The notes beneath the pieces are model-generated. The model searched no databases, was not told the DNA's origin, and was given only the letters and a program-made list of their open reading frames with translations. Below, piece by piece: positions 2,384-59,545 of a DNA stretch of 64,000 nt (its first letter is position 1; each line of letters begins with the position of its first letter). This stretch comes from an uncultured delta proteobacterium. Its GTDB lineage: Bacteria > Desulfobacterota > Binatia > UTPRO1. A program made the translations under genes and the position numbers. Location of the stretch: the NCBI GenBank assembly GCA_963846105.1, contig CAWJUT010000025.1:341579-405578 (forward strand), written 5' to 3'.

Positions 2384-2761
2384 ATGGCACTGGCCATGGA
2401 CGAAACGACCTACATGGAAAACGAGCGCCGGCTATCGTCACCCGAGCCGTCTGCGGTGGGCGCAGTCGAGCGTGGCGTCGAAGCCGCGCAACGCATCGTG
2501 GTGGAAGGCCTCGAGCTCCTCCGACTGGAAGCCGAGGAGAGGCTTTCCCGGACCGTTCGCGGCGCGGCACTCTTGAGTTTGGGAGGCGCGCTCGCCCTCA
2601 TCGGATGGTGTGCGCTTATGCTCGTCGTCGTGCTGGTCGTGCGTGAACGTTGGTCCCTCATCGGGGGACTCGCGGTCGTCGGCGCCGCGCATCTCGCAAT
2701 CGGTGCCGGCGCGATCGCCTACGCCCTGGCCGACACGGGCAAGAGGAGGCAGCAGACGTGA
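2384..2761 (+). CDS. Small membrane protein with 2 TM helices, resembling the putative holin-X family (PF07332-like)
   Basis: Hydrophobic segments LLSLGGALALIGWCALMLVVVLVV and LIGGLAVVGAAHLAIGAGAIAYALA. ATG at 2384 within ORF 2225..2761; the start is uncertain. Confidence 0.45.
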   Translation: MALAMDETTYMENERRLSSPEPSAVGAVERGVEAAQRIVVEGLELLRLEAEERLSRTVRGAALLSLGGALALIGWCALMLVVVLVVRERWSLIGGLAVVGAAHLAIGAGAIAYALADTGKRRQQT

Positions 2762-2961
2762 ACGGCGACGACGTAGAAGAGCAACGCGAGCTGCTGCGAC
2801 AATCGATCGAGCGCAACGAGGCGGAGCTTCGTGGAGCGGTCGACGAGCTGACCACTGCGGTCAAGAACGAGCTCACCTTGCGAAAGCAGATCACCGAGCA
2901 TCCGATTCCCTGGTTGCTCGGGGGCTTCGCCTTGGGTCTGTGGCTCGGCCGCAGCGGGTGA
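2759..2961 (+). CDS. Small coiled-coil protein with a C-terminal TM anchor (DUF3618/DUF883-like)
   Basis: GTG start overlapping the upstream stop (GTGA). C-terminus PIPWLLGGFALGLWLGRSG. Confidence 0.4.
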
Positions 2962-2979
2962 CACGGAAGGAGAGCGATC

Positions 2980-3195
2980 ATGGCAGAGGGTACGTCCAGT
3001 TCATGGCATGAAGAGGAGGAGCTCCATGGCGACGGGTACGCCGACGCCATCAAAGCCCGCGCAACCAAGGTCCGCTCGGGGCTCGAGAGCTTCGACGGCG
3101 AGCTTCGCACGTTGGTGAAAGAACGACCGTTCGTCGCCCTGGTGGGTGCCGTTCTCGGAGGCTATCTGCTCGCGCGCCTCTTGGCGCGACGCTAG
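2980..3195 (+). CDS. DUF883 (YqjD/ElaB-like) membrane-anchored stress protein
   Basis: C-terminal motif RPFVALVGAVLGGYLLARLLARR, typical of DUF883. Coiled-coil N-terminus. Confidence 0.5.
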   Translation: MAEGTSSSWHEEEELHGDGYADAIKARATKVRSGLESFDGELRTLVKERPFVALVGAVLGGYLLARLLARR

Positions 3196-3203
3196 GGGGT
3201 TCC

Positions 3204-3569
3204 ATGACAGAGTCGTCGAAAGAACCAACCGAGAAGTCGAAATCCGGCAATGGGTCGGACGCGTCGCGCTTCGCACGCCTGCAGAAGCAGGGACGTCAAG
3301 TCCAGCGGGAGGCACGCGCTCTCGCCACGGGTCTCGAAGAGGCCGCCGACGAGATCGAAGGCTTCCTGCGCGAGCAAATGGAGCAGCGTCCGTACGGAGT
3401 GCTCGCCGCCGCGGCGGGAGTCGGCTACGTGCTCGGCGGCGGTATCCCGTCGCCGCTGACGCGGCTGCTGCTCGACTACGCGACTCGCTTCGCGTTCACG
3501 GTCGCGGTCATGCAAACCAAGAGGAGAGTGGATCATGATGAATCTCAAGGTCAAAGACCTCGTGGATAG
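3204..3569 (+). CDS. Hypothetical coiled-coil protein with a C-terminal Gly-rich TM segment (DUF883-like)
   Basis: RPYGVLAAAAGVGYVLGGG segment. Lies in the same cluster as the other small stress proteins. Confidence 0.35.
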   Translation: MTESSKEPTEKSKSGNGSDASRFARLQKQGRQVQREARALATGLEEAADEIEGFLREQMEQRPYGVLAAAAGVGYVLGGGIPSPLTRLLLDYATRFAFTVAVMQTKRRVDHDESQGQRPRG

Positions 3570-4356: not shown

Positions 4357-5870
4357 CTAGGGAATCTGCGTCGCAGTCCCCCCCAACTGCAGGCGCGCGA
4401 GGCCAGGAATGCCGCCGGCGGCGTTCACGGCGCTCGAGCTCGTCGGACCGATGCAGAAGAGCGTCGCCAGCGTCGGGTTCGACACGCCATTCTCGTCGGG
4501 CGGATCGGCCGCGCCGACCGCTGTCACGCTGCCGCCGACCACGCCGTTGTCGAGGAAGCACGGGCGGCGCTTGAGGATCGTGCACGTGGCGTTGAGATTG
4601 GCGCACTCGGCGTCCATGAAGCAGCCCTGGAAGGACGCGTCGCCGCTGCAGAACTGCTCGACCGGTCCGCCGGCACACTCGCCGTCGTTCGGATCCGCCG
4701 CGGTTGCGACACAGGTCTCGTCCTCGCACTCGTTCGGCGCCGGAGCCTGTCCCGGAGTCGAGCACGCGCCGCCCGGGCATTCGCTGTTGACCGCGCACGG
4801 GGCGCCGTTGTTGGGGCCGAGACGGCAGCGCCGGCCGCCGCACACGCCCGGCTGCCCGCCGCTCAGCGGGCAGTCGGCGTTGGTCGAGCACGGCTCGGCG
4901 GCGGCGGTGTTGCAGGTATCGCAGAAGCACCGCGCGCTCGGTCGTGCACGGCACGGGGGGTTGGCGTCGGAGAGTGTGGCGCTCACCGAGCCCGTGCTGG
5001 TCGAGAGGTTGATCGGCAGCGCCGCGATCTGGCCGTTCGGGAACGGCGGACACTCGAAGCTGGTGCTTCCGAAGAAGCTGTTCTTGTGCGTCCCGGAGAC
5101 GTCGCAGGCCAATCCTTGACGCGGCCCGTTGTCACACGTGCCGCCGGGCTGGCCGTCGGCCGGTGTGGGGTCGCCCTCGCACTGCGGGCACGGCGCCGCG
5201 ATCTCGAGGCCGCTGAACACGCGCGAGATGAGTCTCACGGTCGAGACGCTGCTGCCCTCCTCGATGTTGACGGTCCCGGTGATCTCGCTGTTCACCTCGT
5301 TGGTGACGCAGGCGGAGACGCCGCCCGCCGCGAGCGCCAGCGGCGCGCCGAAGAAGAACTTGCAGGCCGCGCCGCCACAGTCGGCGCTGGAGGTGCACTT
5401 GACCGCGAGGTCGTTGCTGCAGCGCTGGTTGTCGGCCGTGCCGGCATCGCGATCCGGATTCGGAATCGGCCCGCTGACGTTGCACTGTCCGCAGGGGCGC
5501 GTCGCACTCTGGCAGCCCGTGACGCTGACCGTGATCTTGCCGCGGTCGATGACACCCGCTCCGTGTCCCTGACCCGTCCACCCGGGGTCGAGCTGGGCGT
5601 TGTTGACGTCGCCCTCGAACGAGAGGGCGCTCGGGCAGGCTGATCCAGGAGTCGGCGTGATCGTCGGGCTCACCGACGTATCGGTGGCGTCGGGCGTCGG
5701 CGTGACCGTGGGCGACGTCGGCGTGCCGGCCGTCGGTGTGGCGGTCCGGGCCGGGGTGTCGGGTCCGGGGTGCCGGTCGAGCTGTTTTCGTTGTCGCCGC
5801 AATGGGCGATCGCGATCGCCATCGCGATCAAGCCAGCGGCGCGTGCGCCTGCTCGTAGCCTCATGTGCAT
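4357..5870 (-). CDS. Lipoprotein with a Pro/Thr linker and a large Cys-rich extracellular domain (frameshifted near the N-terminus)
   Basis: The N-terminus MHMRLRAGARAAGLIAMAIAIAHCG (lipobox) is in the frame of ORF 5670..5870. It continues into the 510-aa ORF 4357..5889, which is rich in Cys pairs. Confidence 0.5.
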
Positions 5871-6133
5871 GGTCTCCTCCGTGACACATCGTGAACGTAC
5901 TGCCGGTGAGCTTCGCCGATCAACGTACTTCGCGCACCAAACTATTTCGCTTCGGACGACGCATCGCGGCGCGATGCGCGGTCGCGAACGGCACTGCGCC
6001 CGCCGCGCGTATCAGCCGTCGATGGACCTTGCAACTTCTACAACGGGGCTTACCTCCGTCCACCCGGTCGAGACTGCCATCGTCGTGAAAGCAGGGACTT
6101 GGCCTTGGCACAGATCCTGCGATTGCGACCGGC

Positions 6134-6553
6134 ATGCTGCAGGTCGCTTCCATGGTGCTCGATGGGGTGTGGACCTCGATCGATCACGTGCTCGACTCGG
6201 TGCTTGCGATGCGCGCGCGCTTCGCGGTGCTGCTCGCGACCGGAAGCGAAGGCAGCGCCATCGTCATCGAAGCACGGGAGGGCTGGGTAACGCTGAGCGG
6301 GGAGGTCGCCTCGTCGATGGGGGCAGAACGGGCGGTGAGCGCGGTGCAGGCGATCGCGCCCATCGGCGTCGCCGATCGTTTGCGGGTCGCGTCCGTCAAG
6401 CCGCGGCGCTACGCCGATGACGAGATCCGGCGCGCGGTGCAAGTCCAACTCGGCGGCCTGCGCGCGCTGCGACTGAGCGGCATCCGTGTCGCCGCGGTGT
6501 ACGACGGACTGGTGCTGCTCACGGGAACCGCAGTCAGCACGCCGTCCACTTGA
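6134..6553 (+). CDS. BON-domain protein (OsmY-like), two BON repeats
   Basis: VTLSGEVAS...AERAVSAV and VYDGLVLLTGTAVS motifs. Confidence 0.55.
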   Translation: MLQVASMVLDGVWTSIDHVLDSVLAMRARFAVLLATGSEGSAIVIEAREGWVTLSGEVASSMGAERAVSAVQAIAPIGVADRLRVASVKPRRYADDEIRRAVQVQLGGLRALRLSGIRVAAVYDGLVLLTGTAVSTPST

Positions 6554-6672: not shown

Positions 6673-7002
6673 ATGCACAGACACAAGCAGAGACAGAGAC
6701 AGACCACACTGACCACGTTCGCATCCCTTGCGACGCTGCTCGCGCTCCCGATGTTTCTGGTTCCGACTTCCGCCGAGGAGACCATCTACGAGCGCCGGAC
6801 GCACGAGGAGCAGCGCCATACGCTCGAGGTCGCGCCGGCCCCTGTGGTGAAAGAGCGCACGATCGTCGAGGCTCAGCCGCCGGTCGCGGAGAAGCGTACC
6901 ACCGAAACGATCGTCCGCGAGGGTGACAAGGACGACATCGACGATCTCGAGAGCGACAACGACAACGACGACGACGACGACAACGACACGACTAGCCGGT
7001 GA
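6673..7002 (+). CDS. Small secreted protein, paralog of 4009..4239, with a poly-Asp/Asn acidic tail
   Basis: Signal peptide LTTFASLATLLALPMFLVPTSA. Repeats of APAPVVKERTIVEAQPPVAEKRTTETIVRE. Encoded by a GAC/AAC repeat at 6950..6990. Confidence 0.5.
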   Translation: MHRHKQRQRQTTLTTFASLATLLALPMFLVPTSAEETIYERRTHEEQRHTLEVAPAPVVKERTIVEAQPPVAEKRTTETIVREGDKDDIDDLESDNDNDDDDDNDTTSR

Positions 7003-7041
7003 TCGTGGCGCGCGCGGCGCGCGTCGCGTAGGCGGCGGATA

Positions 7042-9342
7042 GTGGGGGACCTCCCTCGCTATCCGCCGGCCGAATTTCGCCGCATTCCCTATGGCATCTG
7101 CATCGTCCCGGCAGCGATACGATCGCCACTCGAACTTCGGACGACGCATGATAGTACTGTCCAGGTGCATCGTCCGAAGCTCCTCTGGTTCCTCCCGCTC
7201 CTGGTCGTCCTGATCGGAGTTGCGAAGCCGATCGGATCCGCGTGGGCGGCGGCGGATTTGAGTCCGCAGGTTTCGGACGTCTCGGTATTCGTGAGTGACG
7301 TCGATCCGGGGGATGTGGCCGAAGGATGTGCCGGCGGTACGACGGCGCGCACGCTCGTCCGCTTCACGCTGCGCGCCGACAACCTCGGGCCGGACGATCT
7401 CGTGGTCGGCGCGCCGAATTGTCCTGACTGTCACGAGAATCCCGGCGTGACGTGCGGCAATCCGCTGTTCACGTGCAGTACCGCGCATGGGCATGCGCAC
7501 TTCTCGAGCTTCGTGCGGCCCGAGCTTCTCGACGAGCACGGCACGGTCGTCGCGCAAGGCTACAAGTTCGGCTTCTGCCTGCTCGATTCCATCTGTGCGA
7601 CGCCCCAGTACACCGACTGTCTCGCGAACCAGGGCATCACCGCGGGCTGCTCCGACGTCTACCTCGCCGGGCTCCCTTGCCAGTACGTCGACATCACGGA
7701 CGCCAATCTCGCGCCCGGCGTCTATTCATTGCGTGTCACGCTGGACCCGCAAGGCACTCTCGCGGAGGCCAACGAGGACAACAACACCGCGGAGGCGCCG
7801 GTGCGCATCGGCGCGCCACCTCCCACCTGTCCGGTGCACGTCGCCGCGGACGTTCCGCGGCAGATCCCCGACGATGGGTCGGTCGGCTCGACGGTGACGG
7901 TGGGCACGACCGGTCCATTGACTTCCCTGAAGGTGGTTGGGTTGCGCGGGACGCACTCCTCGGTTGGTGATCTCGAGATTCACCTCAAGAGCCCTTCCGG
8001 CACCGACGTGGTGGTGATGAATCAGGTGTGCGGCGACGACGACGATTTCGAGCTCGATCTCGACGCCGCCGCCTGTGATCCCATCGGTTGCCCGCCGACC
8101 GGCGGCTCGGTGTGGCTCCCCAGTCAGTCCCTGGCGGCATTCAATGGTGAGAACGCCGCCGGCACGTGGACGTTGACCGCCTTCGACCGGACGGCAGGCG
8201 GTACGGGGACGCTCGATGGCTGGGGATTGGAGATCTGCGTCCCCGGAACCGGCTGTCCCGTGTACACCTCGACCGACGTCCCGATGAGCATCCCCGAGCT
8301 CGGAGAGGTGCTCTCCTCGCTCGACGCTTCGCCCGGGACGATCAGCGATCTGAACGTCATCGACCTCCGCGGCACGCACTCGTTCATGAGCGATCTCGAG
8401 CTTCACCTCATCAGTCCTGCCGGGACCGACATCAATGTCATGAATCGCGTGTGCGGGACCGACGATGATTTCGACCTCGATCTCGACGACAGCGCGTGCC
8501 GGGACATCACCTGTCCGCCGACCGACGGGCTGCTCCACAAATCGAGCAGTCCGCTTTCCGCCTTCCTCGGGGAGGATGCCGGCGGCAAATGGACGCTCAA
8601 GATCATCGACCTCGCCGACGGTGACGGAGGTCAGCTCGACGGCTGGGGCCTGCAGATCTGCAGCTGCGGCAACGGCGTGCTCGATCCCAGCGAGCAGTGT
8701 GACGACGGCAACACCTCGAGCGGCGACTGCTGTTCGGCGAAGTGTCAAACCGAAGTGGTGTGCCCCGCGTGCCAGTCGTGCGACCCACTGTCGCTGAGTT
8801 GCGTCGCCGCGCCGAGGGTGGGTTGCCGCAAGCCGGTCGAGCCCAGGAAGGCGAGCCTCGCGATCTCCGACGGCAAACGGCCGTCCTCCGACCGGTTGCA
8901 GTGGCGCTGGCGAGCCGGCGCCGCCACGATTCCGAGCGACTTCGGTGACCCACGTACCGATGAGGGTTACGCGCTCTGTGTCTACGATCGATCCAAGGTC
9001 ACACCGAGCTTGCTGTATGCGGGGGGAGCCGCAGAGGGCACGTGCGGAACGGATAGATGCTGGCGCGGGCTCGGAAGGCCACCGGGCAAGCGCGGGTTCT
9101 CGTTCAGCAACCGCGCCGGTACGCCCACCGGCTTGACGAAGGTCGGGCTCAAGCCCGGTGTGCAGGGTCGTGCTCAAGCGACGGTGTTGGGGCGAGGCCA
9201 GCATCTCATCTTGCCGACGATGCCGCTTCCCCTTCCTCTCCAGGTGCAGCTCCACGGCGTCAACGCCTGCTGGGAAGCCGAATACGCCGAGGACGGCGTC
9301 AGCAGGAACGAGCCGGGCCGCTTCCGCGCCAGGGCGGAGTGA
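7042..9342 (+). CDS. Secreted multidomain protein: lysyl-oxidase-like catalytic domain, two proprotein-convertase P-domains, a Myxo cysteine-rich repeat, and the shared ~165-aa C-terminal domain
   Basis: LOX hallmarks: HxHxH copper site (STAHGHAHFSSF), Lys in KFGFCLLD, and DVYLAGLPCQYVDITDANLAPGVYSLRVTLDP...EDNNTAE (compare CQWIDITDV...NNVV of LOX). Two P-domain repeats with GTWTL/GKWTL ... LDGWGLEIC. CSCGNGVLDPSEQCDDGNTSSGDCC. C-terminus aligns with the other three copies. Confidence 0.8.
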   Translation: MGDLPRYPPAEFRRIPYGICIVPAAIRSPLELRTTHDSTVQVHRPKLLWFLPLLVVLIGVAKPIGSAWAAADLSPQVSDVSVFVSDVDPGDVAEGCAGGTTARTLVRFTLRADNLGPDDLVVGAPNCPDCHENPGVTCGNPLFTCSTAHGHAHFSSFVRPELLDEHGTVVAQGYKFGFCLLDSICATPQYTDCLANQGITAGCSDVYLAGLPCQYVDITDANLAPGVYSLRVTLDPQGTLAEANEDNNTAEAPVRIGAPPPTCPVHVAADVPRQIPDDGSVGSTVTVGTTGPLTSLKVVGLRGTHSSVGDLEIHLKSPSGTDVVVMNQVCGDDDDFELDLDAAACDPIGCPPTGGSVWLPSQSLAAFNGENAAGTWTLTAFDRTAGGTGTLDGWGLEICVPGTGCPVYTSTDVPMSIPELGEVLSSLDASPGTISDLNVIDLRGTHSFMSDLELHLISPAGTDINVMNRVCGTDDDFDLDLDDSACRDITCPPTDGLLHKSSSPLSAFLGEDAGGKWTLKIIDLADGDGGQLDGWGLQICSCGNGVLDPSEQCDDGNTSSGDCCSAKCQTEVVCPACQSCDPLSLSCVAAPRVGCRKPVEPRKASLAISDGKRPSSDRLQWRWRAGAATIPSDFGDPRTDEGYALCVYDRSKVTPSLLYAGGAAEGTCGTDRCWRGLGRPPGKRGFSFSNRAGTPTGLTKVGLKPGVQGRAQATVLGRGQHLILPTMPLPLPLQVQLHGVNACWEAEYAEDGVSRNEPGRFRARAE

Positions 9343-9398
9343 CGAATTCTTGCGATCCGCGCCGACGGCTGTCGATGAGGGTGGGGCGCGGACTGGAC

Positions 9399-9780
9399 TA
9401 GTAGTAAAGATGATAAGAATAGAAAAGAGAGGATGTGAAGAGTGAGGAAAGGAAGTGGTATGGTTAGGTTAGTGTTAGGAATGAAAGAGTATATGGAAGG
9501 TTAAGTAGAAGATATGGAGTTTGAGAGAAGATGAAAGCTATTAAGATAATTAATAGAGGAGGCTAAGGGGTAGGAGGGCAGTGTAAGAAGGTAGATAAAT
9601 GTATGAGGAGATGAGTTAATGGGAAGAAGATAATATTGAATGGGATGAAGAGGAAAAAGATTTAGAGGAGGAGTGGAGGAAAGAGAGGAAATGGGTAGTA
9701 TAGAGATAGTTGAAGTAGGTAGGAAAAAAAGATAGGATAGTAGAGGATGATCTGGAGGGAGAGATAAGAGAGCTGAAGGA
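9399..9780 (+). other. C-depleted purine-rich (GA/T) low-GC tract. On the + strand 9399..9537 has zero C, and there are only ~5 C in ~380 nt. Non-coding
   Basis: Direct base inspection. Flanking DNA is ~35% C. The reverse-strand ORF 9501..10052 translates to low-complexity P/S/L sequence. Confidence 0.6.
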
Positions 9781-10742
9781 AGAGCGAGACGGGGAGATAG
9801 AAGAGGATGGCGAGGAATTGGCGCAAAGCCTGACCGAACTCTGGCGTGATCGATGAGTATAGAATCTAGGTGCACCCGTCGTGCTTGGAGACGGCTAGCC
9901 ATATTTCGCCGGGGCCCAGCCGCGTCCGTCTTATGGCTAATGATAGGATTGGCGAGGATGTGATCAGGTTGGCCTACGTTCTGCTTAATCTCGCGACTAG
10001 CAGGATGGAAATAGCAGCTGAAGTCTGGTATTGGGAAGACGTTGTTAAGCAACTGATGGTTGCTAATAGGCCACTGAAGACACGGCGAGTGCTTGCGATT
10101 ACAGTTTAGCGGCTGCTCTTACGAGGAATGAGGGGCTTGCAGGGCGCATGCAGCGGCGCGTACTGTGGACTCATGGTGATGACAGGGATCAGACTGGCTC
10201 CTCAGGCCACGCTGACACCATGGCACGCTGTGCTGACGCTATGGGGGAGAGGAGAACAGAAAGAAGCGCGAAGGAAGGGCGGAGGTCCGATAAGGGGGTT
10301 ACGTCCCCCGGGTAAGACCCTTCATGTCGCCTATGACTCTATGACCATGCCGTGACGGGCGGACGCTCCGGTAGCATTACCTGACCGGCGCGATCCACGT
10401 CCCGCTCGATTCTTCCGCTCGATCGTACCCGGATACTCGCTGGCGAGGACACCTGGCCGTCTGGGCTCAGTTCCTCATCCGGCTTCCGGGCGTATACGTT
10501 TACAGGGGTGATGGCACGGAGGCTCGCCCAAACGGCTCAGGTACCACCTCGGGATGCTCGAGGGCGACGACATCGCTATCGGTGGAGGTCCGTAGGCGGT
10601 GCGACCACCCGAGTGGGGCACGCGCACGGGAGGCCCCCGGACGACGGCGGGATGTCGCCTGCTTTCCGACCCTGCACGCCATGAGATACGCCAGTTCATA
10701 TGCAGGAAACTATCTCGCGCAGTTGCGGGAAGGTGTCGTGCG

Positions 10743-11336
10743 ATGCGTCGACCGCGGTGTCGCGCTCGTCACGCACGTGGGTGCGCCGGCCACGTGCCAC
10801 TGTGCAGCGCCGGCGGCCGCGAGCGGCGACCTTCTCCGATCCGGCCACGCGGCACATCTGGCTGCAAGCATCCGCTGTTCGCCGGTCTGCGGCCCGTCGA
10901 AACTCGGAGGATTCTCCGCATGATGCGCGTGGAGATGGCGCCTGCCGGCGCGAGCATTCTCCGCCACGGCGAGCGCGGCGCGGAGCTCTACGTCCTCGTG
11001 AGCGGCCGTGCCGAGGTCCGGCTGGGCGAGGACCGTTTGCTCGACACCATCGTGCACGGCGACGCGTTCGGCGAAATGGCCGCGATCCGCGACAGCGCGC
11101 GCTGTGCCGACGTCATCGTCGTCGAGGATGCCGCGTATCTCGTCCTCGACGCCGCCTGCATCCTGCGTCTGGGCCGCGAGTGCCCGCGCATCGCCGCAAC
11201 GTTCTTCGAGAACCTCGCCTGCAGCTTGAGCGACCGCCTCGAACGCACGACGCACCGGCTCGCCACCGCGCGCCACGGAGGCAATCTCTCCAGCGGGACG
11301 CGCGAGATCGAAACGCAGGGAGGAGGGTCGTCATGA
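10743..11336 (+). CDS. Cyclic-nucleotide-binding (Crp-like cNMP) domain protein
   Basis: HPLFAGL...ILRHGERGAELYVLVSGRAEVRL...GDAFGEMAAIRDSARCADVIVVEDAAYLVL matches the cNMP-binding fold. The start is uncertain. Confidence 0.6.
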   Translation: MRRPRCRARHARGCAGHVPLCSAGGRERRPSPIRPRGTSGCKHPLFAGLRPVETRRILRMMRVEMAPAGASILRHGERGAELYVLVSGRAEVRLGEDRLLDTIVHGDAFGEMAAIRDSARCADVIVVEDAAYLVLDAACILRLGRECPRIAATFFENLACSLSDRLERTTHRLATARHGGNLSSGTREIETQGGGSS

Positions 11337-12067
11337 CGGCGAGCCGACAAGACGGCCTGACGGTGGGCTACGAAACCCACCGGCGAGAGCTTACGACGTA
11401 TCTGACCCGAATGGTCGTGCGCGAAGACGTGGCGCAAGAGCTGGTGCAGGAGACCGCGGTGCGCGCGCTCGAAGCCTCTCGGTTGCCCGACGATCCCCGC
11501 GAGCTCCGCGCCTGGCTCTTTCGCATCGCCACCAACCTCGCGATCGATCATCTGCGCCGTCATTCGACGTTCAAGGAATCGTTGCTCCTCGACGACAAGG
11601 AACGCGCGTCTCGAGATGGAGCGTTCGTCGCGGAGAGTCGACTGCTGCGTGGCTCGCCGGAGGTGAAGTCGATCGCGCGCGAGCACCTGGTGATTTGCTT
11701 CGCGTGTACGCTGCGCAATCTGCGGCCCGAGCAGTCGGCCGCCTTGCTGCTAAAGGAAGTCTACGGCTTCACTGTCGCCGAGACGGGCGAGCTGATGGGG
11801 GCGACGTTCGGGCAGGTGAAGAACTGGATTCAAACGGCGCGCGCAACGCTCGAAGCAAAATATGCGCAGACCTGCGCGCTCGTTGCACAGAAAGGTGTCT
11901 GCTACCAGTGCGTCGAACTCGATGGGTTCTTCGACGCGAACCGCGGCGATCCCACGCTGGGACGCCGGAGATCTAGACGCGCGCCTCGCGATCCTCAGGG
12001 AGCGAAAGGACACCCCGTTGGGAACGTGGCATCGCCTGATGATGCGTCTCGTAGACGAAGTGTTTGA
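11333..12067 (+). CDS. ECF-type RNA polymerase sigma-70 factor with a C-terminal Cys-containing extension
   Basis: ATG at 11333 overlaps the upstream stop (ATGA), with a GGGAGGAGGG RBS. Region 2 (ELVQETAVRAL...WLFRIATNLAIDHLRR) and region 4 (EVYGFTVAETGELMGATFGQVKNWIQTAR), then CALVAQKGVCYQCVELDGFF. Confidence 0.75.
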   Translation: MTASRQDGLTVGYETHRRELTTYLTRMVVREDVAQELVQETAVRALEASRLPDDPRELRAWLFRIATNLAIDHLRRHSTFKESLLLDDKERASRDGAFVAESRLLRGSPEVKSIAREHLVICFACTLRNLRPEQSAALLLKEVYGFTVAETGELMGATFGQVKNWIQTARATLEAKYAQTCALVAQKGVCYQCVELDGFFDANRGDPTLGRRRSRRAPRDPQGAKGHPVGNVASPDDASRRRSV

Positions 12068-12178
12068 CGAGACATGAAAGGATGCAGCCGAGAGGAAGTG
12101 TCGCGGCGCTCCTCGATCTGTTCGTGAAGCGGCTGGTGGTCGCTCCGCTGGGAGGCGGAGACTGACGTCGAGGCCGAG

Positions 12179-13460
12179 GTGTCGTCGGGCGGTCTGGCCT
12201 TCACGGTGCACTGCCGGCCGCAGCCGCTCGCGATATGTCTTCTGTTGGTATTGTGGCTGAGCGCATCCGAGGTCTCGGCTGACGTCCAACCCGGCGACGT
12301 CATCCGGCCATCGAGCGCGGAGCGAGTGAGGAACGTCGTATCACCGGGTGTGTTTTGGTGTGTGGAGCGTGGTCTCCCGATGAGAAGGATTGCGTCGCGA
12401 TCGTTCGAGTGGCCGCCCGCATACAAGGAAGCCACGGAGAAATATGCATCCCAAGTGCGACTCACCTCCGATGGGCTTCATCTCGAGGGCTACGTGGCGG
12501 GCGCCCCGTTTCCGCACCTCGATGCGAATGATCCGCAAATCGCCAATAAGCTGATCTGGAATTTCAACTACAAGTTCTACAACGGCGACGACTTCGACCT
12601 CCGCAACTTCGACGCTGATACTGGATCCATCACGGCCGACCGCGAGTTCGCCATCGAGCGTCACTTCCTGATCGCACACTTCCGGCGGCTTTGGTACGTC
12701 AACCGGCTCTACATCGATCCGAAGCCTAACCTAGTCCCGAATACGGAAGAGATAGCCTACAAGGAGACGCTCCACCCACTAATCGAGCCGTTCGACCTGA
12801 AGGGCGTGGGCTTTACCTACTACCGTTACCTCGACCCGGCGCGGCAGGACGACAGCTGGCTCTACTTGCCAACGCTACGGCGAGTGCGTCGGCTATCAAC
12901 CGCCCAGTGTTCGACGCACTCTTCGGCGAGGAGTTCGATCAAGACAGCTACTACGGGTACAGCGGACAGCCGGCCTGGACGGACTGGCGATTCCTCGGCG
13001 AGAAGGAGATGCTCGCGGTGTGGCAGGCACAGAATTTCCCGACGAAATGGTAGCTGCGCTCGGCTGACTGGGCATTCGACGAGGTGTGGGAGAAACGCCT
13101 GTCTACGTCGTCGAGGGGGTATGGAAACTTCCGCAGTACGCGTACTCCAAACGGGTCCTGGTCATCGACAAGGAGCTCTATGGGATTCCGTACGCGGATA
13201 TGTACGACCGGGCGGGTGAGCTTTGGAAGACCATCATCCACGCCGCCAAGGTCGGGACAAAGACGATTCCAACGGCGACGAAGGCCTCCTATCCCTACAA
13301 CATGGCGTTCGCGTCTGCGATCACGATGGTCGACGTCCAACTCGGACACGCGACGCGGGTCGCGTTGCCGAGCCACCGCTTTCCCGGCGAGGATGGGTGG
13401 TACTCAACTTTGGAGATGAAATGGGGACGACCGCAGAGCAGTTCTCGATCGCCGAACTGA
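12179..13460 (+). pseudogene. Secreted DUF1329-like protein, disrupted by frameshift(s)
   Basis: ORFs 12179..13219 and 13086..13460 are overlapping frames of one gene (IWNFNYKFYNGDDFDLRNF...YVVEGVWKLPQYAYSKRVLVIDKELYGIPYADMYDRAGELWK). The family assignment is tentative. Confidence 0.4.
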
Positions 13461-13975
13461 TTCGCGCCGGCAATTGAAAGACACGCCGGTCGCCATCTGG
13501 AGCGGCTCGCCAAGGAGCGTACTCAAACGGGACAGGTGCTCACCACGTGAAAGCCGGATACGATACAGGCACCGAGCGCCATCCTGCGGCGCTCTCTTCG
13601 GTAGACTTCCGCTGGCAGTCAAGCACAGAAGACCTGTCGCGCCTAGAGGTAGGTCGAGCTGCGCGAGTACCGGGCGGCAGAAGCCGATCACGCGCGGGCG
13701 GAGCGGCGCGAGCGGCGCACGCCCGTGGGGACACCGTCGCTGACGTCCCACTCGGCTCTGGCCCGAAGCGCGCAGTCAGGAAGTCGACGAAGGCCCGCAC
13801 CTTCGCTGAGAGATGGTGGGTGACGAATACAGCGCCCAGATCCCAGTCGAGCGATCCTCGTACGGCACGAGAACGGCATGGAGCGTAAGCGCCGCAGATC
13901 TGGACCGACGAAGAAAAGAGGTAGCTGCACGAGGCCCACGCCGCGCACCGCAGCCAGACGCAGGAGGTCACCGTC

Positions 13976-14246
13976 GTGACTGCGCAGGCTGGGCCGACCT
14001 GCACCGGCGGATCTTGCGATCGATGTCCTCGCCTGCATCTGTGGCGGCCGCCTGCGGTTGATCGCGAAGATCAAGACCCAGTCGTCGTCGAGCGCATCCT
14101 CCGCCACGTTGGCCTCCCGACCGCCACGCCCGAGCCCGCCCCGGCTCGCCCGCCGCCTGTGTCTGGCGACTGCTTCGCCTTGGAGCTCACCACCTGAGTC
14201 GTCTCACCGCGGCCCCACTTGGATCGCCGCGTCGCTCGCGCCTTGA
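13976..14246 (+). mobile_element. Possible remnant of an IS91-family (Y2) transposase C-terminus
   Basis: Reading across two frames gives C..C.RCGGRLRLIAKI...DPVVVERILRHVGLPTATPEPAPARPP. This resembles the C-terminal zinc-ribbon tail of IS91/IS801 transposases. The surrounding 13.4-14.6 kb has no intact ORF. Confidence 0.25.
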
Positions 14247-15672
14247 CGAAGCTGCCGGGCGCGTGCGCGCGTCGTGGTATGCCCGTCCACTGAAAGGCAG
14301 TGCGCTGACTCTCGACCACCGATCGTCACGGTCGAGACGCGCGGAGCCACCGAATGACGGAATGTCGAGCATCAGCGGCCGCCAGTCGACGGAGATGCCG
14401 ACCGCCTCGGCAGCTCGAAGGACGGTCACGGCGACGAAGCATACGGGCTCTCGAAGTGGACGACGCTATGAGCGGACAATCGGAGTGCAGCGGATCGAAT
14501 GCGCGAGGGACGCGTCGGCATAGCGTCGAGGCGCTCCTAAGACCATTGCGCGCCGCTCGTTGACGACGAACTCTCTCGTCACGATGAAGGTGCCGTGGGC
14601 GGAGACGTCTACTTTGACGTTGCCCGCCGCCCAGCGTCCGGTCTCGCGACGTGAAACTCGATCGTAGCCGGACCCTGCGGTCCGATCGTTTTTTCCATCG
14701 CGTCGATGACGGTTACCTTTCCGTTCTCGGTCATCCAGCGCTCCTTGAACACGATGGTGCGCGGAGGGATCCCACGGTAAAGGTGAAGAGGTTAGGGGTA
14801 GTGGAGTGGACTCAAAAGGTGGCGCAGCTCACCGGAGTTGGCTCCGCTGCTGCCGCCACGGCTACGAGCTTCGACTGCGACGTCGGTGCTCGCGTCGTGA
14901 CGGACTGTCGACAGTCCACGGCGAGACTATACGACGTCATCGCCGCGAGTTCATAGCGTGAAGCGTAAGGTAGCGACGAGCGCTCGCTGTGATAAGCGTT
15001 CGCTCGGATGCGCGCGAGTTCCGTGGCCGGCCCGGAGAGCTGCTCAGGAGTAGGCGACGAGCTCGAATGAGCGGTAGTAGTGGGTTATGCTGTGGTGCGG
15101 GAGGAGTATGCGTAGATGCTGCAGAGTTTGAACTGGTGTGGATACTATTATTAGCGCAGTAACTGTGTGGTTTTAACGAAGAGAGGTGATGATGAGCGTG
15201 AGGATTAGCAACTTCACGGCACGGGGGATGGTTATACCGGGAACGCGTTGCATGACGACGAGAAGAGACGCGAGCAGAAGCAAGTACACTACTGCCGCGA
15301 GCGTCGCTGAGGCGGGATTCCGCCAGCGTGTATGCGCGGTCCGACGATCGCGGTGAGCGCGCCGAAGGCGGCGGCCGGTGGTCCGCGGAAGAAGGCCCCG
15401 AGATCCGCCTCGTTGGAGGGCACGTTCGCGTAGCCGTAGATTTGGAAGACGAACTCATACGCGATGACGCCTGCCGCGCCGAAAGCAAGCGCCGACATCC
15501 ATTCGTACAAAGGGTCGGATGTCGTTGCCATGAACGTCGTAGCTACGCTGGGACTTGCTACAGGATGCCTGCCCAACTCCGCAAGGCGTTTGGAGATAAA
15601 TGGATTCACCTAGTCATATGCGTCTCGTAAAGCTTCTGGCGTAAGCAGCCCCGCCGTTCTAGTCTCTCGGCG

Positions 15673-17892
15673 ATGCGTGCCGGTCCCCGTCGTTCCCGTC
15701 ACCTCGTCGTGCTCGCGGCCGTGAGCCTCCTGGTGGCGCCTTCTGTCGGCGCGACCACCTATAGTGTCGGTCCCTCGGGGAGCGATGATTTCGCCAGCAT
15801 CCAGCCCGCGCTCGACGTTGCCGTCGCCGGCGACACGATCAACGTCCACGAGAAACCGACCCCGTACTTCGAAAAGATCACGTTCCCGGCGAGCGGCAAC
15901 GCAATCGACGGCCACATCACGCTGCAGGCGGCTGCGGGAGAGTCGCCCGTGATCGACGGCACGGCAGTGCCCGGCGACAACATCGTCCTCATCGACTCGC
16001 GCAGCTACGTGAAGCTCGTCGGCTTCGAGATCCGCAACAACCTCGGGGTGAACGACGGCTCGGGCGTGCGGATCCTGGGAGCCGGCTCGCACATCGAGAT
16101 CCGCGACAACCGCATCCACGACATCCGCGGCCAGCACGCCATGGGGATCACCGTCTACGCCACGCGCCGACCAGCCCATCTCGAACCTGATCATCGACGG
16201 CAACGAGATCTACGACTGCGACCCGGCTGAGAGCGAGGCCTTGACGCTTGAACGGCAACGTCACCGACTTCGAGGTGACGAACAACGTGTCCGCGACGTG
16301 AACAACATCGGGATCGACTTCATCGGCGGCGAGACCGACATCAACCCCGAACCCGACGAAGGTCGCGCGCAACGGCGTCTGTCGCGGCAACCAGGTCGAC
16401 GCGGGCGCGCGTCAGCATGGCGGGGGCTACGCGGGCGGGATCTACGTCGACGGCGGCAAGAGACATCGTGATCGAGAACAACGTCGTCACGGAGTCCGAC
16501 CTCGGCATCGAGGTCGGCGCCGAGAACAGCCGGCATCGTGGCGAGCGGGATCGTGGTCCGGAACAACGTCCTCTATCGGAACGAGAAGGCGGGCCTGGTC
16601 TTCGGGGGCTTCGACGCCGAGCGTCGGGCGCGTCCGCGACAGCTCCTTCACGAACAATACGCTCTTCGGCAACGACACCCTCGGGGCGGGCTTCGGCGAG
16701 CTCTGGATCCAGTACGCCGAGGACAACCAGGTCCGGAACAACATCTTCTTCGCGTCCGGACAACCGCGCTTGCTCACCTCCGACGCCGGCAACGTCGACA
16801 ACGCGCTCGACTACAACGTCTGGCACCGCGACGGATCGCCGGTCGAGTTCGTGTGGAACGGCACGTCATACGCGGATTTCAACGCCTATCGGCTCGCGAC
16901 CGGCCAGGACGCCAACAGCGGCTCGTTCGACCCGTGCTCGTCGACACGGTCGGCCCCACCTTCGATTTCCATCTGACGGCCGCGTCGGGCGCCATCAATG
17001 CCGGTGACCCGGCGTTCGTGCCGGGCGTGGGCGAGACCGACCTCGATGGCGGCACGCGCGTCAACGGCCCGCGCGTCGACGTCGGCGCCGACGAGGTCAC
17101 CGCCTGCGGCAACGGCGTCACCGAGCCTCCGGAGCTCTGCGACGACGGCGATCTCGAGAGCGGCGACGGCTGTGACGCCAATTGCACCCCGACGGGTTGC
17201 GGCAACGCCGATCACCACGGCTGGCGAGCAGTGCGACGACGGCAACGTGAGCGCGGGAGACTGCTGCTCGGCGACGTGTCAGTTCGAGACGACCGGGTCA
17301 CCCTGCAGCGACGGCAACCCGTGCACCACCACCGACGCCTGCACGAGCGGCGTCTGCGCCGGCGTCGAGGCGCCCGAGCCAGTTTGCCGGGTGGCGATCA
17401 CCGGCTCGCTCACGCTGCGCGACCGCTCGCCCGAGCACCGCGGATCTGCTCAACTGGAAGTGGACGAAGGGAGCAGCCACGACGGTCGGTGACTTCGGCG
17501 ACCCGATCGGCGGCGCGACGTCCTACGATCTCTGCGTGTACGACGAGAGCGCGGGCGTGCCGAGTCTTCTTCTGCGGGCGGCGCTCCCCGCCGGCGGGAC
17601 GTGCCACGGCAAGCCGTGCTGGAAGCTCGCGGGCTCGACCGGCATACGGTACGGCGACCGTGACGGGACTCCCAACGGCGTCACCAAGGCCACACTCAAG
17701 AGCGGCATCGGCGGCAAGGCGAGCGTGAAGGTCAAAGCCAAGGGCCTGAACCTCGCGATGCCGGCGCTCTCCCTCGATCAGGACACCCACGTCACCGTGC
17801 AGCTCAAGAACAGCCAGGGCGTCTGCTGGGGGTCGAGCTATCCCGCACCCGCGATCCGGAACGACAGCGCGCAGTTCAAGGACAAGCTATGA
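15673..17892 (+). CDS. Secreted right-handed parallel beta-helix (pectate-lyase/NosD-like) protein with Myxo cysteine-rich repeats and the shared ~165-aa C-terminal domain (multiple frameshifts)
   Basis: Signal peptide MRAGPRRSRHLVVLAAVSLLVAPSVGA, followed by TYSVGPSGSDDFASIQPALDVAVAGDTINV. Beta-helix repeats IRNN..NDGSGVRI, IRDNRIHD. CGNGVTEPPELCDDGDLESGDGCD and GEQCDDGNVSAGDCCSATC. Fragments 15673..16230, 16417..17007, 16538..17728, 16998..17492 and 17536..17892 lie in different frames. Confidence 0.65.
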
Positions 17893-27035: not shown

Positions 27036-28148
27036 ATGCATGACCGTCGACGCGGCCTGACCCCGCTCGTGTTCGCCATCGCAGCGACGTTCGCCACCGC
27101 CGCAAACGTCCACGCGTTCTCCGGGGGCATCACGACCTTCAGCTTCGGCGCCGGCGGATGCAACTCGTGTCACTTCGGCGGCACGATCCCGACAGTGATG
27201 CTGACCGGGCCGACGACGGTGCTGCCGAGCTCGTCCAACGAGTTCACGTTCCAGGTCTTCGAGGTCGGGTCGCAGACGCATGCCGGTCTCAACGTGTCGG
27301 CGCTCGACGGCGTGCTCACCACCGGCGGCGGCAACTCCGCCAACACCCAGGTGCTGGTCGGAACGGGCTCGCGCAACGAGATCACGCATACGGGGCCCAA
27401 GATGGCGGCCGCGGGTGTCACGACGTTCTCCTTCTTCTGGACGGCGCCGGCCTCGTTCAACAACATATCGCTGAACGCGTGGGGAAACGCGGTCAACTTC
27501 AATGGCACTTCCGCGGGGGACGCCGCGCAGTTCGCCAGCCTGGAAGTACTGAACGCGCTCGGCACCACAACGCCGACGCCCACTCCGACGGCGACGCCGC
27601 TCACCTGCGACGCGGCGCCGATTGCCGGCTGCCGGACGCCCGCCATCGGGCAGAAGGCGTTCCTGCTCTTGAAGGATCAGCCCGACGACAACAAGGACAA
27701 GCTCATCTGGAAGTGGATCAAGGGCTCGGCGACGGCGAAGGTGCCGGACTTCGGAACGCCGCTCACGACCACCGACTACCTCCTCTGCGTCTACGACGGC
27801 ACGTCGACCAAGATCGCGGAGGGGCTCGCACCGGCCAATGGTCTCTGCAACGCCTCGAACCCGACCGCCTGCTGGTCCGACAAGCCGACCGGCTTCAAGT
27901 ACAAGGACAAGGATCTCACGCCCCACGGCTTGCAGCAGATCCTGCTCAAGGAGGGGTTGGTCGAGAAGGCGAAGATCATCGTCAAAGGGAAGGGCCTGAA
28001 TCTGGATATGCCGTCCATGCCGGTCACACAGCCGCTCACCGTTCAACTGAGGAACGGCGCCGGCGTCTGCTGGGAGGCGGTGTACAGCTCGCCGGCGATC
28101 AAGAACGAGATGGGGCCGCCGGGCTTCTTCAAGGACAAGGCCGACTGA
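27036..28148 (+). CDS. Secreted protein: N-terminal monoheme (CxxCH) beta-sandwich-like domain, PT linker, and the shared ~165-aa C-terminal domain
   Basis: Signal peptide LTPLVFAIAATFATAANVHA. GCNSCHFGG. TTTPTPTPTATP linker. C-terminus CRTPAIGQKAFLLLKDQPDDNKDKLIWKWIKG...LCVYD...PTACW...KGKGLNLDMP...VQLRNGAGVCW...FFKDKAD. Confidence 0.6.
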   Translation: MHDRRRGLTPLVFAIAATFATAANVHAFSGGITTFSFGAGGCNSCHFGGTIPTVMLTGPTTVLPSSSNEFTFQVFEVGSQTHAGLNVSALDGVLTTGGGNSANTQVLVGTGSRNEITHTGPKMAAAGVTTFSFFWTAPASFNNISLNAWGNAVNFNGTSAGDAAQFASLEVLNALGTTTPTPTPTATPLTCDAAPIAGCRTPAIGQKAFLLLKDQPDDNKDKLIWKWIKGSATAKVPDFGTPLTTTDYLLCVYDGTSTKIAEGLAPANGLCNASNPTACWSDKPTGFKYKDKDLTPHGLQQILLKEGLVEKAKIIVKGKGLNLDMPSMPVTQPLTVQLRNGAGVCWEAVYSSPAIKNEMGPPGFFKDKAD

Positions 28149-38671: not shown

Positions 38672-40306
38672 CTAGACCTCGATCTTCCGCGTCGTCATCT
38701 GCGAGCCCATGTCGCCGGCGACCCAGCCGCCGATGATCGCCGAGAACATGCCGGCGTCGCTGCCGGCGACGACGATGGTGAGCTGGTCGTCGGTGCGGAA
38801 CTTCGCGAGCGGCATGTCGAGCATGGCGGCCGGCGGCTCGCCGGTGATGCCGAAGATCTTGAGGGGCATGCCTTCGGCGCAGCGCTCGTCCGGCAGCAAC
38901 TCGCGGAGCGGCCGCGCCGTCACCGCCTGGATGGCGCGGCGGATCTCGGCCTTGCCCCAGCCGTCGGCGGCGCACTTCTGCACGTGCTCGGGCGCCAGCA
39001 CCAGGACGGCGTCGACCAGCCCATGGAGCTTGTGATGCATGACGGTCGCGAGCGCGCGCTCCAGCGACTCGCAGAGGCTCTGCGCGGTGCGGCTCGCCTG
39101 ATCCATGACGGCCCGCGGCGCTTCACCGGCGAAGAGCGTCACCGTCGAGTCCTCACGCGCGAAGCCGCGCTCGACGTGGAGCGGGTCCCACGGGCTCGCC
39201 TCTTCGTTCTCCGCGAAGCAGTAGGTGTACTTGCCGGGGTGTCCGAGCGTGCACTTGTCGATCTCGCCAGGACGGCCGCCGCCGAGATTGCGAATCACCA
39301 GCGGCAGCGCGCGCCCGATGGTCGCGTTGGCGCGGTTGCCTTGTCCGAGCGCGTTGTGGCCGGCGTTCATGCCGATCGCGTGGCGGATCGGTCCGTTGAC
39401 GATGATGAGCGGCGCCGGGAAGTAGGTCGTGGCGACGACGCCGTGCAGGTTGAAGCGCTCCTCGCACGCCGCTTCGACGCTGGCGAGCACGACCGGGAAG
39501 TACTCCGGCTTGCAGCCCGCCATGACGGCGTTGATCGCCACCTTCTCGACCGTGACCGGCACGAGGTTCGGCGGCACGACGGCGACGATCTCCTGCGGAT
39601 GCCGGCGCGTGCCCTCGAGCATGCGGAGCACGCGGCCTTCGGTGGGCGGTACGATGGGAAGGCCGTCGGTGAGCCCCTTGGCGAAGAAGAGCTCGACGGC
39701 GTCGTCGAGGTCGCCGACCTCGATCCGCCGTGCCACGAGGGTAGCGCCGGCGCGTTCCGCCTCGAGGCGCTTGGCGATGTCGGGATCGAACGTGCGCGAC
39801 CCGCAGCCCGGACGGAAGTCAGGCACGGCGTCGGCGGGGGCGATGATCTCCGGCGCCGCGACGCCGAGCTCGGCGGCGGCCGCGCCCGCGAGCGCGTCGA
39901 AGTCGGCGCGCGCCCAGCCCTCGAACGCCGCCCGGACGTTTCCCGCGAGATCGGTGAGCACCAGAGTGGGGACGACCTCGATCTCGTAGGCCGCCGAGAC
40001 CCGGCACGCCGAGTCATCGAGAAGCGGGAAGCCGAGACCGTGGCGCGCCGCGAAGGCCTCGGTGTCGGCGCGCGCGCTCTGGCAAACGCCGCGCACGCGC
40101 ACGCCCGCCGGTCCGAGGCTGCGATGCAGGCGCTCGACGAGCGGCAGCACCAGCTCGCAGGTGGCGCAATTGTGCTTCCAGAAGACCAGCAGCTCGAGGC
40201 GCACGGCGCCCGCGGCGGTAGCGGCGCCGCTCGCGAACCCATGCGCCGCGCCGCTGAATTCGTCGAGCGTGAAGGGCGGGGCCGCGAGCCCGGGCGCGAG
40301 CCGCAT
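38672..40306 (-). CDS. Fusion protein: N-terminal thioredoxin-fold domain (CxxC = CATC) plus a large uncharacterised C-terminal domain
   Basis: VRLELLVFWKHNCATCELVLPLVERL...VRGVCQS...AARHGLGFPLLDDS (redoxin/TlpA-like). The C-terminal ~400 aa (…CTLGHPGKYTYCFAENEE…) has no family recognised by me. Confidence 0.55.
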   Translation of the reverse strand: MRLAPGLAAPPFTLDEFSGAAHGFASGAATAAGAVRLELLVFWKHNCATCELVLPLVERLHRSLGPAGVRVRGVCQSARADTEAFAARHGLGFPLLDDSACRVSAAYEIEVVPTLVLTDLAGNVRAAFEGWARADFDALAGAAAAELGVAAPEIIAPADAVPDFRPGCGSRTFDPDIAKRLEAERAGATLVARRIEVGDLDDAVELFFAKGLTDGLPIVPPTEGRVLRMLEGTRRHPQEIVAVVPPNLVPVTVEKVAINAVMAGCKPEYFPVVLASVEAACEERFNLHGVVATTYFPAPLIIVNGPIRHAIGMNAGHNALGQGNRANATIGRALPLVIRNLGGGRPGEIDKCTLGHPGKYTYCFAENEEASPWDPLHVERGFAREDSTVTLFAGEAPRAVMDQASRTAQSLCESLERALATVMHHKLHGLVDAVLVLAPEHVQKCAADGWGKAEIRRAIQAVTARPLRELLPDERCAEGMPLKIFGITGEPPAAMLDMPLAKFRTDDQLTIVVAGSDAGMFSAIIGGWVAGDMGSQMTTRKIEV

Positions 40307-40315
40307 GCGCCGCCT

Positions 40316-41099
40316 CAGCGCAGGTGGAAGAGGCCGGAGGTCGGCCCGCCGTCCACCGAGAGCGTCTGGCCGGTCACGTACGACGATGCCTCCGACGCGA
40401 AGAAGATGCACGGCCAGGCGATCTCTTCGACCCGTCCGAGGCGGTCGAGCGCCGTCGAGCGCTCGACGGCGCGGCGGATCTCGGGGGTCGGCCAGGTGCG
40501 ATCGCCGGATTCGGGCGTGTCGATCGGACCAGGGGCGATGCAGTTGACGAGGATGCCGTGGCGGCGCCCACTCGGCGGCGTGCGAGCGTGTGAGGTTGAT
40601 CACGCCGGCTTTGGCGGCGCCGTAGTGACTCATGCCCGGGGAGCCGTCGACGCCCGCCTCGGACGACATGTTGATGATACGGCCGGGGGTCTTGGCGGCG
40701 ATCCAGCGTCGCACCGCGGCGCGCGAGCAGAGAAACGTCCCGGTCAGGTTGATCGCGACGATGGTCGCGAATCCGTTCGGGCTCATCTCCTCGGCGCGCT
40801 GAAAGAAGCTCGCGCCATGGTTGTTGATGAGCACGTCGAGCCGTCCGAAGGCGTCGTAGGCGCGGGCGACCATCGCCTCGACCTGCGCGGCGTCACGGAC
40901 GTCGCAGATCGACGCTCTCGACGGTGCCCCCGCCGGAACGGATGTCCGCCGCCACCGGATCGAGATGCTCGGCGCTGCGGCTGGCGATCAGCACCTGCGC
41001 GCCACGGGCCGCGAACTCGCGCGCGATCGCGGCGCCGATGCCGGTGCCGCCGCCGGTCACGATCACCGCCTTGCCGGCGACACTGAAGGGATCGTGCAC
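40316..41099 (-). CDS. Short-chain dehydrogenase/reductase (SDR) (frameshifted)
   Basis: AVIVTGGGTGIGAAIA (TGxxxGIG), NNHG, S...YGAAK catalytic motif, PGPIDT. Fragments lie in frames 40893..41099 and 38672..40873. Confidence 0.75.
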
Positions 41100-59427: not shown

Positions 59428-59545
59428 GACTCCGGCTCCTTCGCGTGGCGCTCCCGGGTGGTCCGCGTCGTGGGAGCGTGCGGGTCCCCCTATAGGAGCC
59501 GCCGGATGGGGAGTCGATTTGGTCGGTGCCGCGCGCTCGCATCTC

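Follow-up and report, generated by a model that had tools for sequence, protein, structure and literature searches.

Lysyl oxidases build the animal extracellular matrix, and bacterial relatives of these enzymes have been known since 2015, none of them with an established function (PMC4448552; PMC6452851). Grau-Bove et al. (2015) found LOX proteins in five bacterial phyla, all but three of the prokaryotic proteins being single-domain (PMC4448552), and in the myxobacterial LOX proteins the lysine, the tyrosine and three histidines are conserved (PMC6508830). A LOX with a Cys-rich C-terminal region was described in Sorangium by Pestov et al. (PMC6452851). A characterized prokaryotic relative is the LOX of Haloterrigena turkmenica (HTU-LOX), an active, copper-dependent enzyme that is sensitive to β-aminopropionitrile and acts on lysine peptides, polymers and small amines (PMC6452851). 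It was the only prokaryotic LOX with published biochemistry found in the literature searched, and shows that such homologs can be active. In the present work, we analyzed a member of this family encoded on a 64-kb stretch of contig CAWJUT010000025.1 (hereafter, the window). The open reading frame (ORF) 7042..9342 (+), as listed for the window and in the public annotation, encodes a 766-aa protein in which a LOX catalytic domain is followed by two P-domains, a Cys-rich repeat and a C-terminal domain (CTD). The gene is an intact and correctly recognised member of the LOX family and, as an enzyme, an ordinary and normal part of that known family. It is likely that the product is a secreted and catalytically competent amine oxidase, dependent on copper and on a lysine tyrosylquinone (LTQ) cofactor, which heads a non-catalytic chain made of the two P-domains, the disulfide-rich repeat and the CTD.

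The limits of the LOX domain (aa 70-262) and of the P-domains (aa 263-404 and 405-545) were set by purpose-built hidden Markov models. The catalytic domain (7249..7827 (+)) was recognised by Pfam, by the sequence and the fold of human LOXL2 and by an alignment of 73 homologs containing a LOX domain. The Pfam family Lysyl_oxidase PF01186 matched aa 147-252 (E=3.4e-22, 79.5 bits for a cutoff of 20.4) over positions 82-190 of the 204 in the profile, and the fold match covers the N-terminal half. With HMMER, aa 148-252 were aligned to LOXL2 (5ze3, E=1.1e-14); no other solved structure was matched by sequence. The AlphaFold2 model, for which the alignment of the 73 homologs served as input, was confident (mean pLDDT 86, about 90 for the LOX domain), and a Foldseek search of the PDB placed LOXL2 5ze3 in first position (E=2.7e-10, 206 columns, 29-30% identity, rmsd 3.3-3.8). 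An earlier inspection of the letters of the window, the sequence-only reading, had assigned a lysyl oxidase signature to residues ~60-250; the domain is indeed present, its limits being revised to aa 70-262, and both the best profile and the best fold are those of LOX/LOXL2 and not those of a different fold.

The motifs of the family are found in the expected order: HGHAH at aa 149-153, GYKFGFC at 173-179, DVYLAG at 205-210, CQYVDITD at 213 and NNTAE at 247. The predicted copper-binding triad H149-G-H151-A-H153 (7486..7500 (+)) is aligned with H626, H628 and H630 of LOXL2, the predicted LTQ lysine K175 (7564..7566 (+)) with K653, the predicted LTQ tyrosine Y207 (7660..7662 (+)) with Y689, and the region E242...N247-N248 (7765..7785 (+)) with the E-S-D-Y-S-N-N segment of LOXL2, which is presumably a Ca2+ site. 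The LOXL2 residue numbers were counted by hand from an alignment starting at chain position 308 and presuppose that the crystallised 5ze3 construct starts at LOXL2 residue 318, as we take to be the case. The three histidines, K175, Y207, E242, N248 and the ten cysteines of the domain (96, 127, 130, 138, 145, 179, 185, 193, 203 and 213) are invariant in the 73 homologs, and N247 is kept in at least 90% of them. A second alignment, restricted to the catalytic core (n=14), was made of distant bacterial LOX proteins, one of them from the cultured myxobacterium Polyangium spumosum, and of the LOXL2 segment. In this alignment, H149, H151, H153, K175, Y207, N247 and N248 are present in 14/14 sequences and E242 in 13/14. 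These results are in agreement with the HxHxH copper site (73/73 and 14/14), the Lys/Tyr pair positioned for LTQ and the C-terminal NNT.E motif already proposed from the letters alone; once properly aligned, the lysine and the tyrosine both fall in the expected columns and are invariant, the LTQ itself being predicted.

Compared with human LOXL2 and the other animal LOX proteins, the protein thus has the same catalytic fold, the HxHxH motif, the LTQ lysine and tyrosine, the E...NN segment and five of the cysteines of the C-terminal half (C179, C185, C193, C203 and C213 align with LOXL2 cysteines). It differs from them by the absence of SRCR domains and of a propeptide, by a catalytic domain which is N-terminal instead of C-terminal and by the fusion to P-domains and to the CTD. 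The disulfide framework of animal LOX comprises ten cysteines; here, the Cys pattern of the N-terminal half is specific to the clade: the core alignment highlights a cluster of four cysteines (C127, C130, C138 and C145; CPxC...C...C), and the cysteine that other LOX proteins have immediately before HxHxH is not found. Nor is there a counterpart of the 'first' histidine in the animal WxWHxCHxHYH motif, as already reported for bacterial LOX proteins (PMC4448552; PMC6508830). HTU-LOX, by its description, consists of a LOX domain with an inhibitory N-terminal segment and has neither P-domains nor CTD. For the LOX of Sorangium cellulosum (WP_012233967.1) and the other deltaproteobacterial and myxobacterial LOX proteins, P-domains are not mentioned in the papers found.

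Upstream of the catalytic domain, the only in-frame start codons are GTG 7042 and GTG 7165. The second one (aa 42) is probably the true start, giving a protein of 725 aa; it is favoured because the full-length homologs have 718-731 aa and open with a signal peptide, their short hydrophobic N-terminus being followed by a conserved LPDLVPE. Read from 7165, the N-terminus, (M)HRPKLLWFLPLLVVLIGVAKPIGSAWA|AADLS, looks on inspection like a Sec-type signal peptide (7165..7245 (+)), with (M)HRPK, the hydrophobic stretch LLWFLPLLVVLIGVA and KPIGSAWA, and the predicted cleavage site precedes AADLS. The LOX domain begins at about aa 70, straight after the signal peptide and without a propeptide. These features point to an export of the LOX protein via Sec. 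The exact 766-aa protein is already deposited in NCBI/ENA, without a name and on a contig of 588 kb.

The two P-domains that follow (P-domain 1, aa 263-404, 7828..8253 (+), pLDDT ~90; P-domain 2, aa 405-545, 8254..8676 (+)) correspond to two stretches matched by Pfam P_proprotein PF01483 (E=5.2e-26, 91 bits for a cutoff of 21). They are tandem duplicates, 54% identical to each other, and Foldseek matched them at prob 1.00 with the P-domains of furin, Kex2 and the Aeromonas sobria serine protease, confirming that two full P-domains follow the LOX domain, as first proposed. In contrast to kexin and furin, the protein has no subtilisin-like domain, its P-domains follow an oxidase and are duplicated in tandem, and they contain a Cys/Asp-rich loop (VCGxDDDFxLDLD...C...CPP). 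Neither Peptidase_S8 nor any other protease domain could be detected in the LOX protein with Pfam and NCBIfam at E<=1; the protein therefore does not belong to the proprotein convertases and has only their accessory domain in common with them. The other P-domain carriers in the homolog list are secreted metallo- and serine proteases.

The remainder of the protein, aa 541-766, was missing from the earlier description. It starts with a Cys-rich acidic repeat and a linker (aa 541-586, 8662..8799 (+)), modelled with low confidence (pLDDT 47-60). NCBIfam TIGR02232 (myxo_disulf_rpt) matched aa 541-572 (E=1.2e-8, 34.6 bits for a cutoff of 20.8), and a weak match to DUF4215 remained below the threshold (22.3 vs 27). 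A 2026 preprint on Cys-rich repeats does not cover this module. The repeat is followed by an all-β CTD of ~175 aa (aa 587-766, 8800..9339 (+)) ending with FRARAE-COOH. A model of the CTD only was very confident (pLDDT 93.3, pTM 0.88). No Pfam or NCBIfam family matched the CTD, even at E<=10, no PDB relative was found by profile-sequence search, and its best Foldseek neighbour in the PDB was not significant (E=0.047, TM<=0.35). The CTD family comprises thousands of proteins and has no database entry; together with the Cys-rich repeat, the CTD makes up the C-terminal third, which is the least understood part of the LOX protein.

The distribution of the CTD was analyzed with a profile built from the four copies encoded in the window, that of the LOX gene included, which was searched against 1.84 billion representative proteins. 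The three further copies, at 1580-2104, 17386-17880 and 27606-28145 (all +), are carried by other predicted secreted proteins and are 34-39% identical to the LOX copy. The profile retrieved 7,497 clusters at E<=1e-3, of which 2,168 remained at E<=1e-30; a word-indexed homolog search with the CTD alone gave no match, so that an exhaustive profile search was needed. Among the best 150 matches, the CTD ends at most 3 residues from the C-terminus in 136/150, the terminal motif is F-[KR]-[DA]-[KR]-[AS]-D (FRARAE in the LOX protein), the 60 residues ahead of the CTD hold about 4 cysteines on average, and the host proteins range from 162 to 1,734 aa. The Pfam partners, determined in 66 longer proteins, are β-propellers, CBM96, β-helix, subtilase S8, GH5 cellulase, SASA esterase and disintegrin-like/DUF4215 repeats, and the loci are mostly found in metagenome-assembled genomes (MAGs) of Binatia or 'Deltaproteobacteria'.

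The CTD being promiscuous, strictly C-terminal and preceded by a disulfide stalk, its distribution suggests an anchoring, targeting or common-ligand-binding module. In these respects, it resembles the CTD of the type IX secretion system (T9SS), which is also strictly C-terminal and β-rich, ends with a conserved motif and is carried by many unrelated secreted cargoes. It differs from this analogue by a size about twice as large (~175 aa), by the lack of any sequence or fold match to a known domain and by its hosts, mostly Binatia and 'Deltaproteobacteria' MAGs, and no sorting machinery was identified for it. We propose only tentatively, as a possibility with the odds against it, that the CTD is an undescribed module for sorting or surface anchoring, which would define a large 'secretome' common to Binatota and related uncultured lineages, the LOX protein being a cargo displayed at the surface or in the matrix, where it would cross-link or modify envelope or matrix proteins. 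If so, the members of the LOX-P-CTD family would be the first lysyl oxidases of bacteria to which a definite place outside the cell can be assigned, and it would be worthwhile to set up a family for the CTD and to look for the machinery that recognises it. A signal of this kind, for anchoring or sorting, would also bring order to the annotation of numerous secreted proteins of Binatota-like genomes.

Two of the other copies in the window lie in less regular genes. In the gene at 16.5-17.9 kb, Cys-repeats and the CTD are found in three frames, and the gene is therefore frameshifted or hit by assembly errors. The ORF 1298-2107 may be the tail of the ORF 15-1013, which contains Dicty_CTDC repeats.

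The combination of PF01186 and PF01483 was found in about 62 clusters (90% identity) in one homolog search, all of them from metagenomes or MAGs. Some have received the NCBI names 'lysyl oxidase family protein' or 'proprotein convertase P-domain-containing protein', in bins of Candidatus Binatia, Limnocylindrales and Terriglobales. A domain census of 118 homolog matches and of the protein studied here yielded 49 LOX-P-CTD proteins, nine LOX-P-P-CTD proteins (the present one included), two LOX-P-P-P proteins, two LOX-CTD proteins and 24 in which LOX was detected without P-domain or CTD. The two-P form is thus a minority variant of a LOX-P-CTD family, and the closest full-length relatives of the protein are 59-63% identical to it. 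The LOX-P(1-3)-CTD layout does not result from misassembly, since about 60 independent clusters share it. Neither a description of a LOX with P-domains nor a paper linking LOX to Binatia was found in the literature searched; the architecture is undescribed there, yet widespread and auto-annotated in the databases. The view that LOX is rare in bacteria and its fusion to P-domains unusual was therefore overstated (~62 clusters; five phyla), although the form with two P-domains is uncommon (9 vs 49). In some uncultured soil lineages, it is thus routine for a LOX head to be carried by P-domains of the protease type and by a common C-terminal module. Such a layout suggests an extracellular and probably tethered enzyme acting on macromolecules, and the LOX-P-CTD protein is a well-defined construct for a first biochemical test of an enzyme of this type.

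On the basis of these results, the following mode of action can be proposed. The protein would be exported via Sec and its signal peptide cleaved after ...SAWA. The LOX domain would then fold with five disulfides and bind Cu(II) through H149, H151 and H153, residues whose conservation is established. By homology with the animal enzymes, a copper-dependent self-processing should oxidise Y207 and cross-link it to the side chain of K175 to form LTQ, a step that would need no accessory gene, as in the known family. According to the chemistry of the family, LTQ would deaminate primary amines to aldehyde, NH3 and H2O2. The likeliest substrates would be the ε-amino groups of lysines in extracellular proteins, and the protein aldehydes could condense into cross-links. 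The probable role of the P-domains, which are β-sandwiches otherwise carried by secreted proteases, is to stabilise the catalytic head, to act as its spacer or to assist it in engaging protein substrates. For the CTD, the distribution suggests, as the most likely role, a tethering or targeting of the enzyme to a shared extracellular destination such as the envelope or the matrix. Macromolecular, peptidyl-lysine substrates at the cell surface or in the matrix are preferred here because P-domains are found elsewhere on secreted proteases and because the tail is of the tethering type.

Several points weigh against this assignment. The start codon is ambiguous, 7042 or 7165. The formation of LTQ and the loading of copper are predictions that cannot be read from a sequence, and the roles given to the P-domains and to the CTD derive from their distribution. 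The pTM of the whole model is low (0.49) and its inter-domain geometry uncertain, as expected for domains on a flexible chain. As the archaeal enzyme has a relaxed specificity, a peptidyl-lysine substrate is not assured (PMC6452851). Every LOX-P-CTD homolog comes from MAGs or metagenomes, no conserved neighbouring gene for a substrate or a partner was found in the window or in the homolog loci, and the window assembly contains error-prone stretches near the LOX gene, the coding sequence (CDS) of which itself looks clean.

The alternative that survives best, although we consider it unlikely, is a scavenging or catabolic oxidase of free small amines or polyamines in soil, the NH3 serving as nitrogen source and the aldehydes being oxidised further, without any protein modification. 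HTU-LOX accepts many small amines as substrates, and the authors of that study proposed a contribution to nitrogen availability (PMC6452851). The gene context of the homologs was compatible with such a role at first sight: in five one-P loci (L082, L083, L085, L087 and L088), the LOX gene divergently adjoins a block encoding an aldehyde dehydrogenase (Aldedh), a PAS histidine kinase and an AMP-ligase (AMP-binding), and in the locus L081 an ammonium transporter lies at most 6 kb from LOX. In these five loci, however, the whole upstream block is common, and the Aldedh proteins are 85-90% identical whereas the LOX proteins are only 55-60% identical. The block therefore indicates a lineage synteny around a fast-evolving secreted LOX and not a functional operon. 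Furthermore, the window contains no Aldedh homolog, none is adjacent to LOX in either of the two two-P ortholog loci, and the N-termini of the Aldedh proteins show no obvious signal peptide by eye. A long tethering stalk with protease-type P-domains also seems over-elaborate for the scavenging of small molecules. As no neighbour is conserved and the Aldedh block is due to close relatedness, the assignment of a substrate from gene context was rejected.

Much less probable than a scavenger is a factor for antagonism or biofilm remodelling acting through H2O2. The LodA-type secreted quinoprotein lysine oxidases provide the analogy, the LOX reaction yields H2O2 stoichiometrically according to the chemistry of the family, and the protein is predicted to be secreted; no catalase, peroxidase or immunity gene was found adjacent to LOX, either in the window or in the homolog loci.

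The integrity of the gene was analyzed by comparison with an independent sister assembly, L090 (8,570 nt), which is collinear with the window from 6995 to 15495 and 97.6% identical to it. In the LOX CDS, the 52 substitutions have a balanced spectrum, 36 being synonymous and 16 non-synonymous, and two indels (window positions 7194 and 8579) break the frame of L090 and not that of the window. As a result, the LOX gene of L090 (276-2347) is split into ORFs of 508 and 174 aa and has lost its N-terminus, which reflects either assembly errors there or a pseudogene in that strain. The ratio of non-synonymous to synonymous polymorphism (pN/pS) is ~0.15 overall, 0.07 for the LOX domain, 0.08 for the CTD and ~0.3 for the P-domains, values that are based on small counts. 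The LOX gene of the window is thus intact and under purifying selection. A catalytically dead, LOX-like binding scaffold, which can be imagined for any divergent enzyme homolog joined to binding modules and for which nothing specific speaks here, is effectively excluded by the copper and LTQ residues, invariant in 73/73 homologs, and by the strongest purifying selection of all domains acting on the LOX domain (pN/pS 0.07). An artefact of assembly or gene calling joining unrelated genes, which the corrupted stretches close by in the window and the split gene of L090 (508 + 174 aa) might suggest, is still less credible, in view of an identical domain order across independent datasets (nine two-P and 49 one-P sequences), of the collinearity with full-length orthologs at 59-63% identity and of the balanced differences from L090, both indels of which disrupt the frame of L090 only.

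The most probable function remains that of a secreted copper/LTQ amine oxidase. The window has a G+C content of ~68%, and the nearest named relatives of its acyl-CoA synthetase (57886-59784 (-)), with 74-78% identity, belong to Candidatus Binatia MAGs, a group placed by NCBI in the candidate phylum Binatota. According to the named relatives of this one enzyme, the host is probably an uncultured Binatota (soil) bacterium and not a myxobacterium. Candidatus Binatia are uncultured and are not known for fruiting bodies or predation. The role in fruiting-body formation or in the modification of prey proteins suggested by the sequence-only reading presumed a myxobacterium and finds no support here.

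Around the LOX gene, a BON-domain protein (6134-6553 (+)) is encoded first, followed by a small protein that is predicted to be secreted and has a strongly acidic tail (…DDLESDNDNDDDDDNDTTSR; 6673-7002 (+)), directly upstream of LOX. Downstream, past a corrupted stretch, a cyclic nucleotide (cNMP)-binding protein and an extracytoplasmic function (ECF) sigma factor are found. None of these neighbours lies beside the orthologs in the loci examined, and the window shows no synteny with the locus of the closest full-length ortholog. Directly upstream of both two-P LOX orthologs, and on the same strand, is a gene for a DUF7450 protein (6650-7939 in L081, 7259-7903 in L084; L001/L084), of which the window contains no homolog. 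The L081 protein has a long Pro/Thr-rich N-terminal region. In these two genomes, the DUF7450 protein could be a partner or a substrate of LOX. L081 also encodes a second, stand-alone LOX of 228 aa (2683-3369), located about 5 kb upstream of the ortholog P0005, which is 36% identical to the LOX domain of the window and has HGHFH and the conserved lysine.

A C-poor tract (9399-9784 (+)) starts 57 nt past the LOX stop codon (9340-9342) and contains only 5 C in 386 nt. It aligns with an intact 176-aa RibD_C (PF01872) gene of L090 (2488-3018), nearly every C of the + strand being replaced. Between 9400 and 9800, the changes relative to L090 are C>A 77, C>T 14 and C>G 8; a weaker loss of C extends to ~10200. 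Rfam, tandem-repeat and metagenome 27-mer searches with the tract were all negative. An enzymatic C-to-U deamination was considered and rejected, the changes being mostly C>A. The most likely cause of the tract is a strand-specific error in sequencing or assembly, by which the RibD_C gene was destroyed here, the LOX CDS being left untouched. A second hot spot of C loss was observed at 14800-15200, with 23 C>T changes in 15000-15200 and numerous indels. The loss is also scattered across 6995-15495: when the main tract is set aside, C>N changes account for 152 of the 295 differences between the window and L090, which suggests systematic cytosine-specific errors or a cytosine modification affecting base-calling.

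Two other ORFs of the window deserve mention. The 510-aa ORF at 4357-5889 (-) is Cys-rich, contains a Pro/Thr-rich linker and has no Pfam match; it resembles a secreted protein. An ORF with a high G+C content at third codon positions overlaps it on the opposite strand, and either strand may be coding. In the 733-aa ORF at 38672-40873 (-), an N-terminal, partial match to short-chain dehydrogenases is found together with an AhpC/TSA domain, which may reflect either a fusion or an ORF that was called too long.

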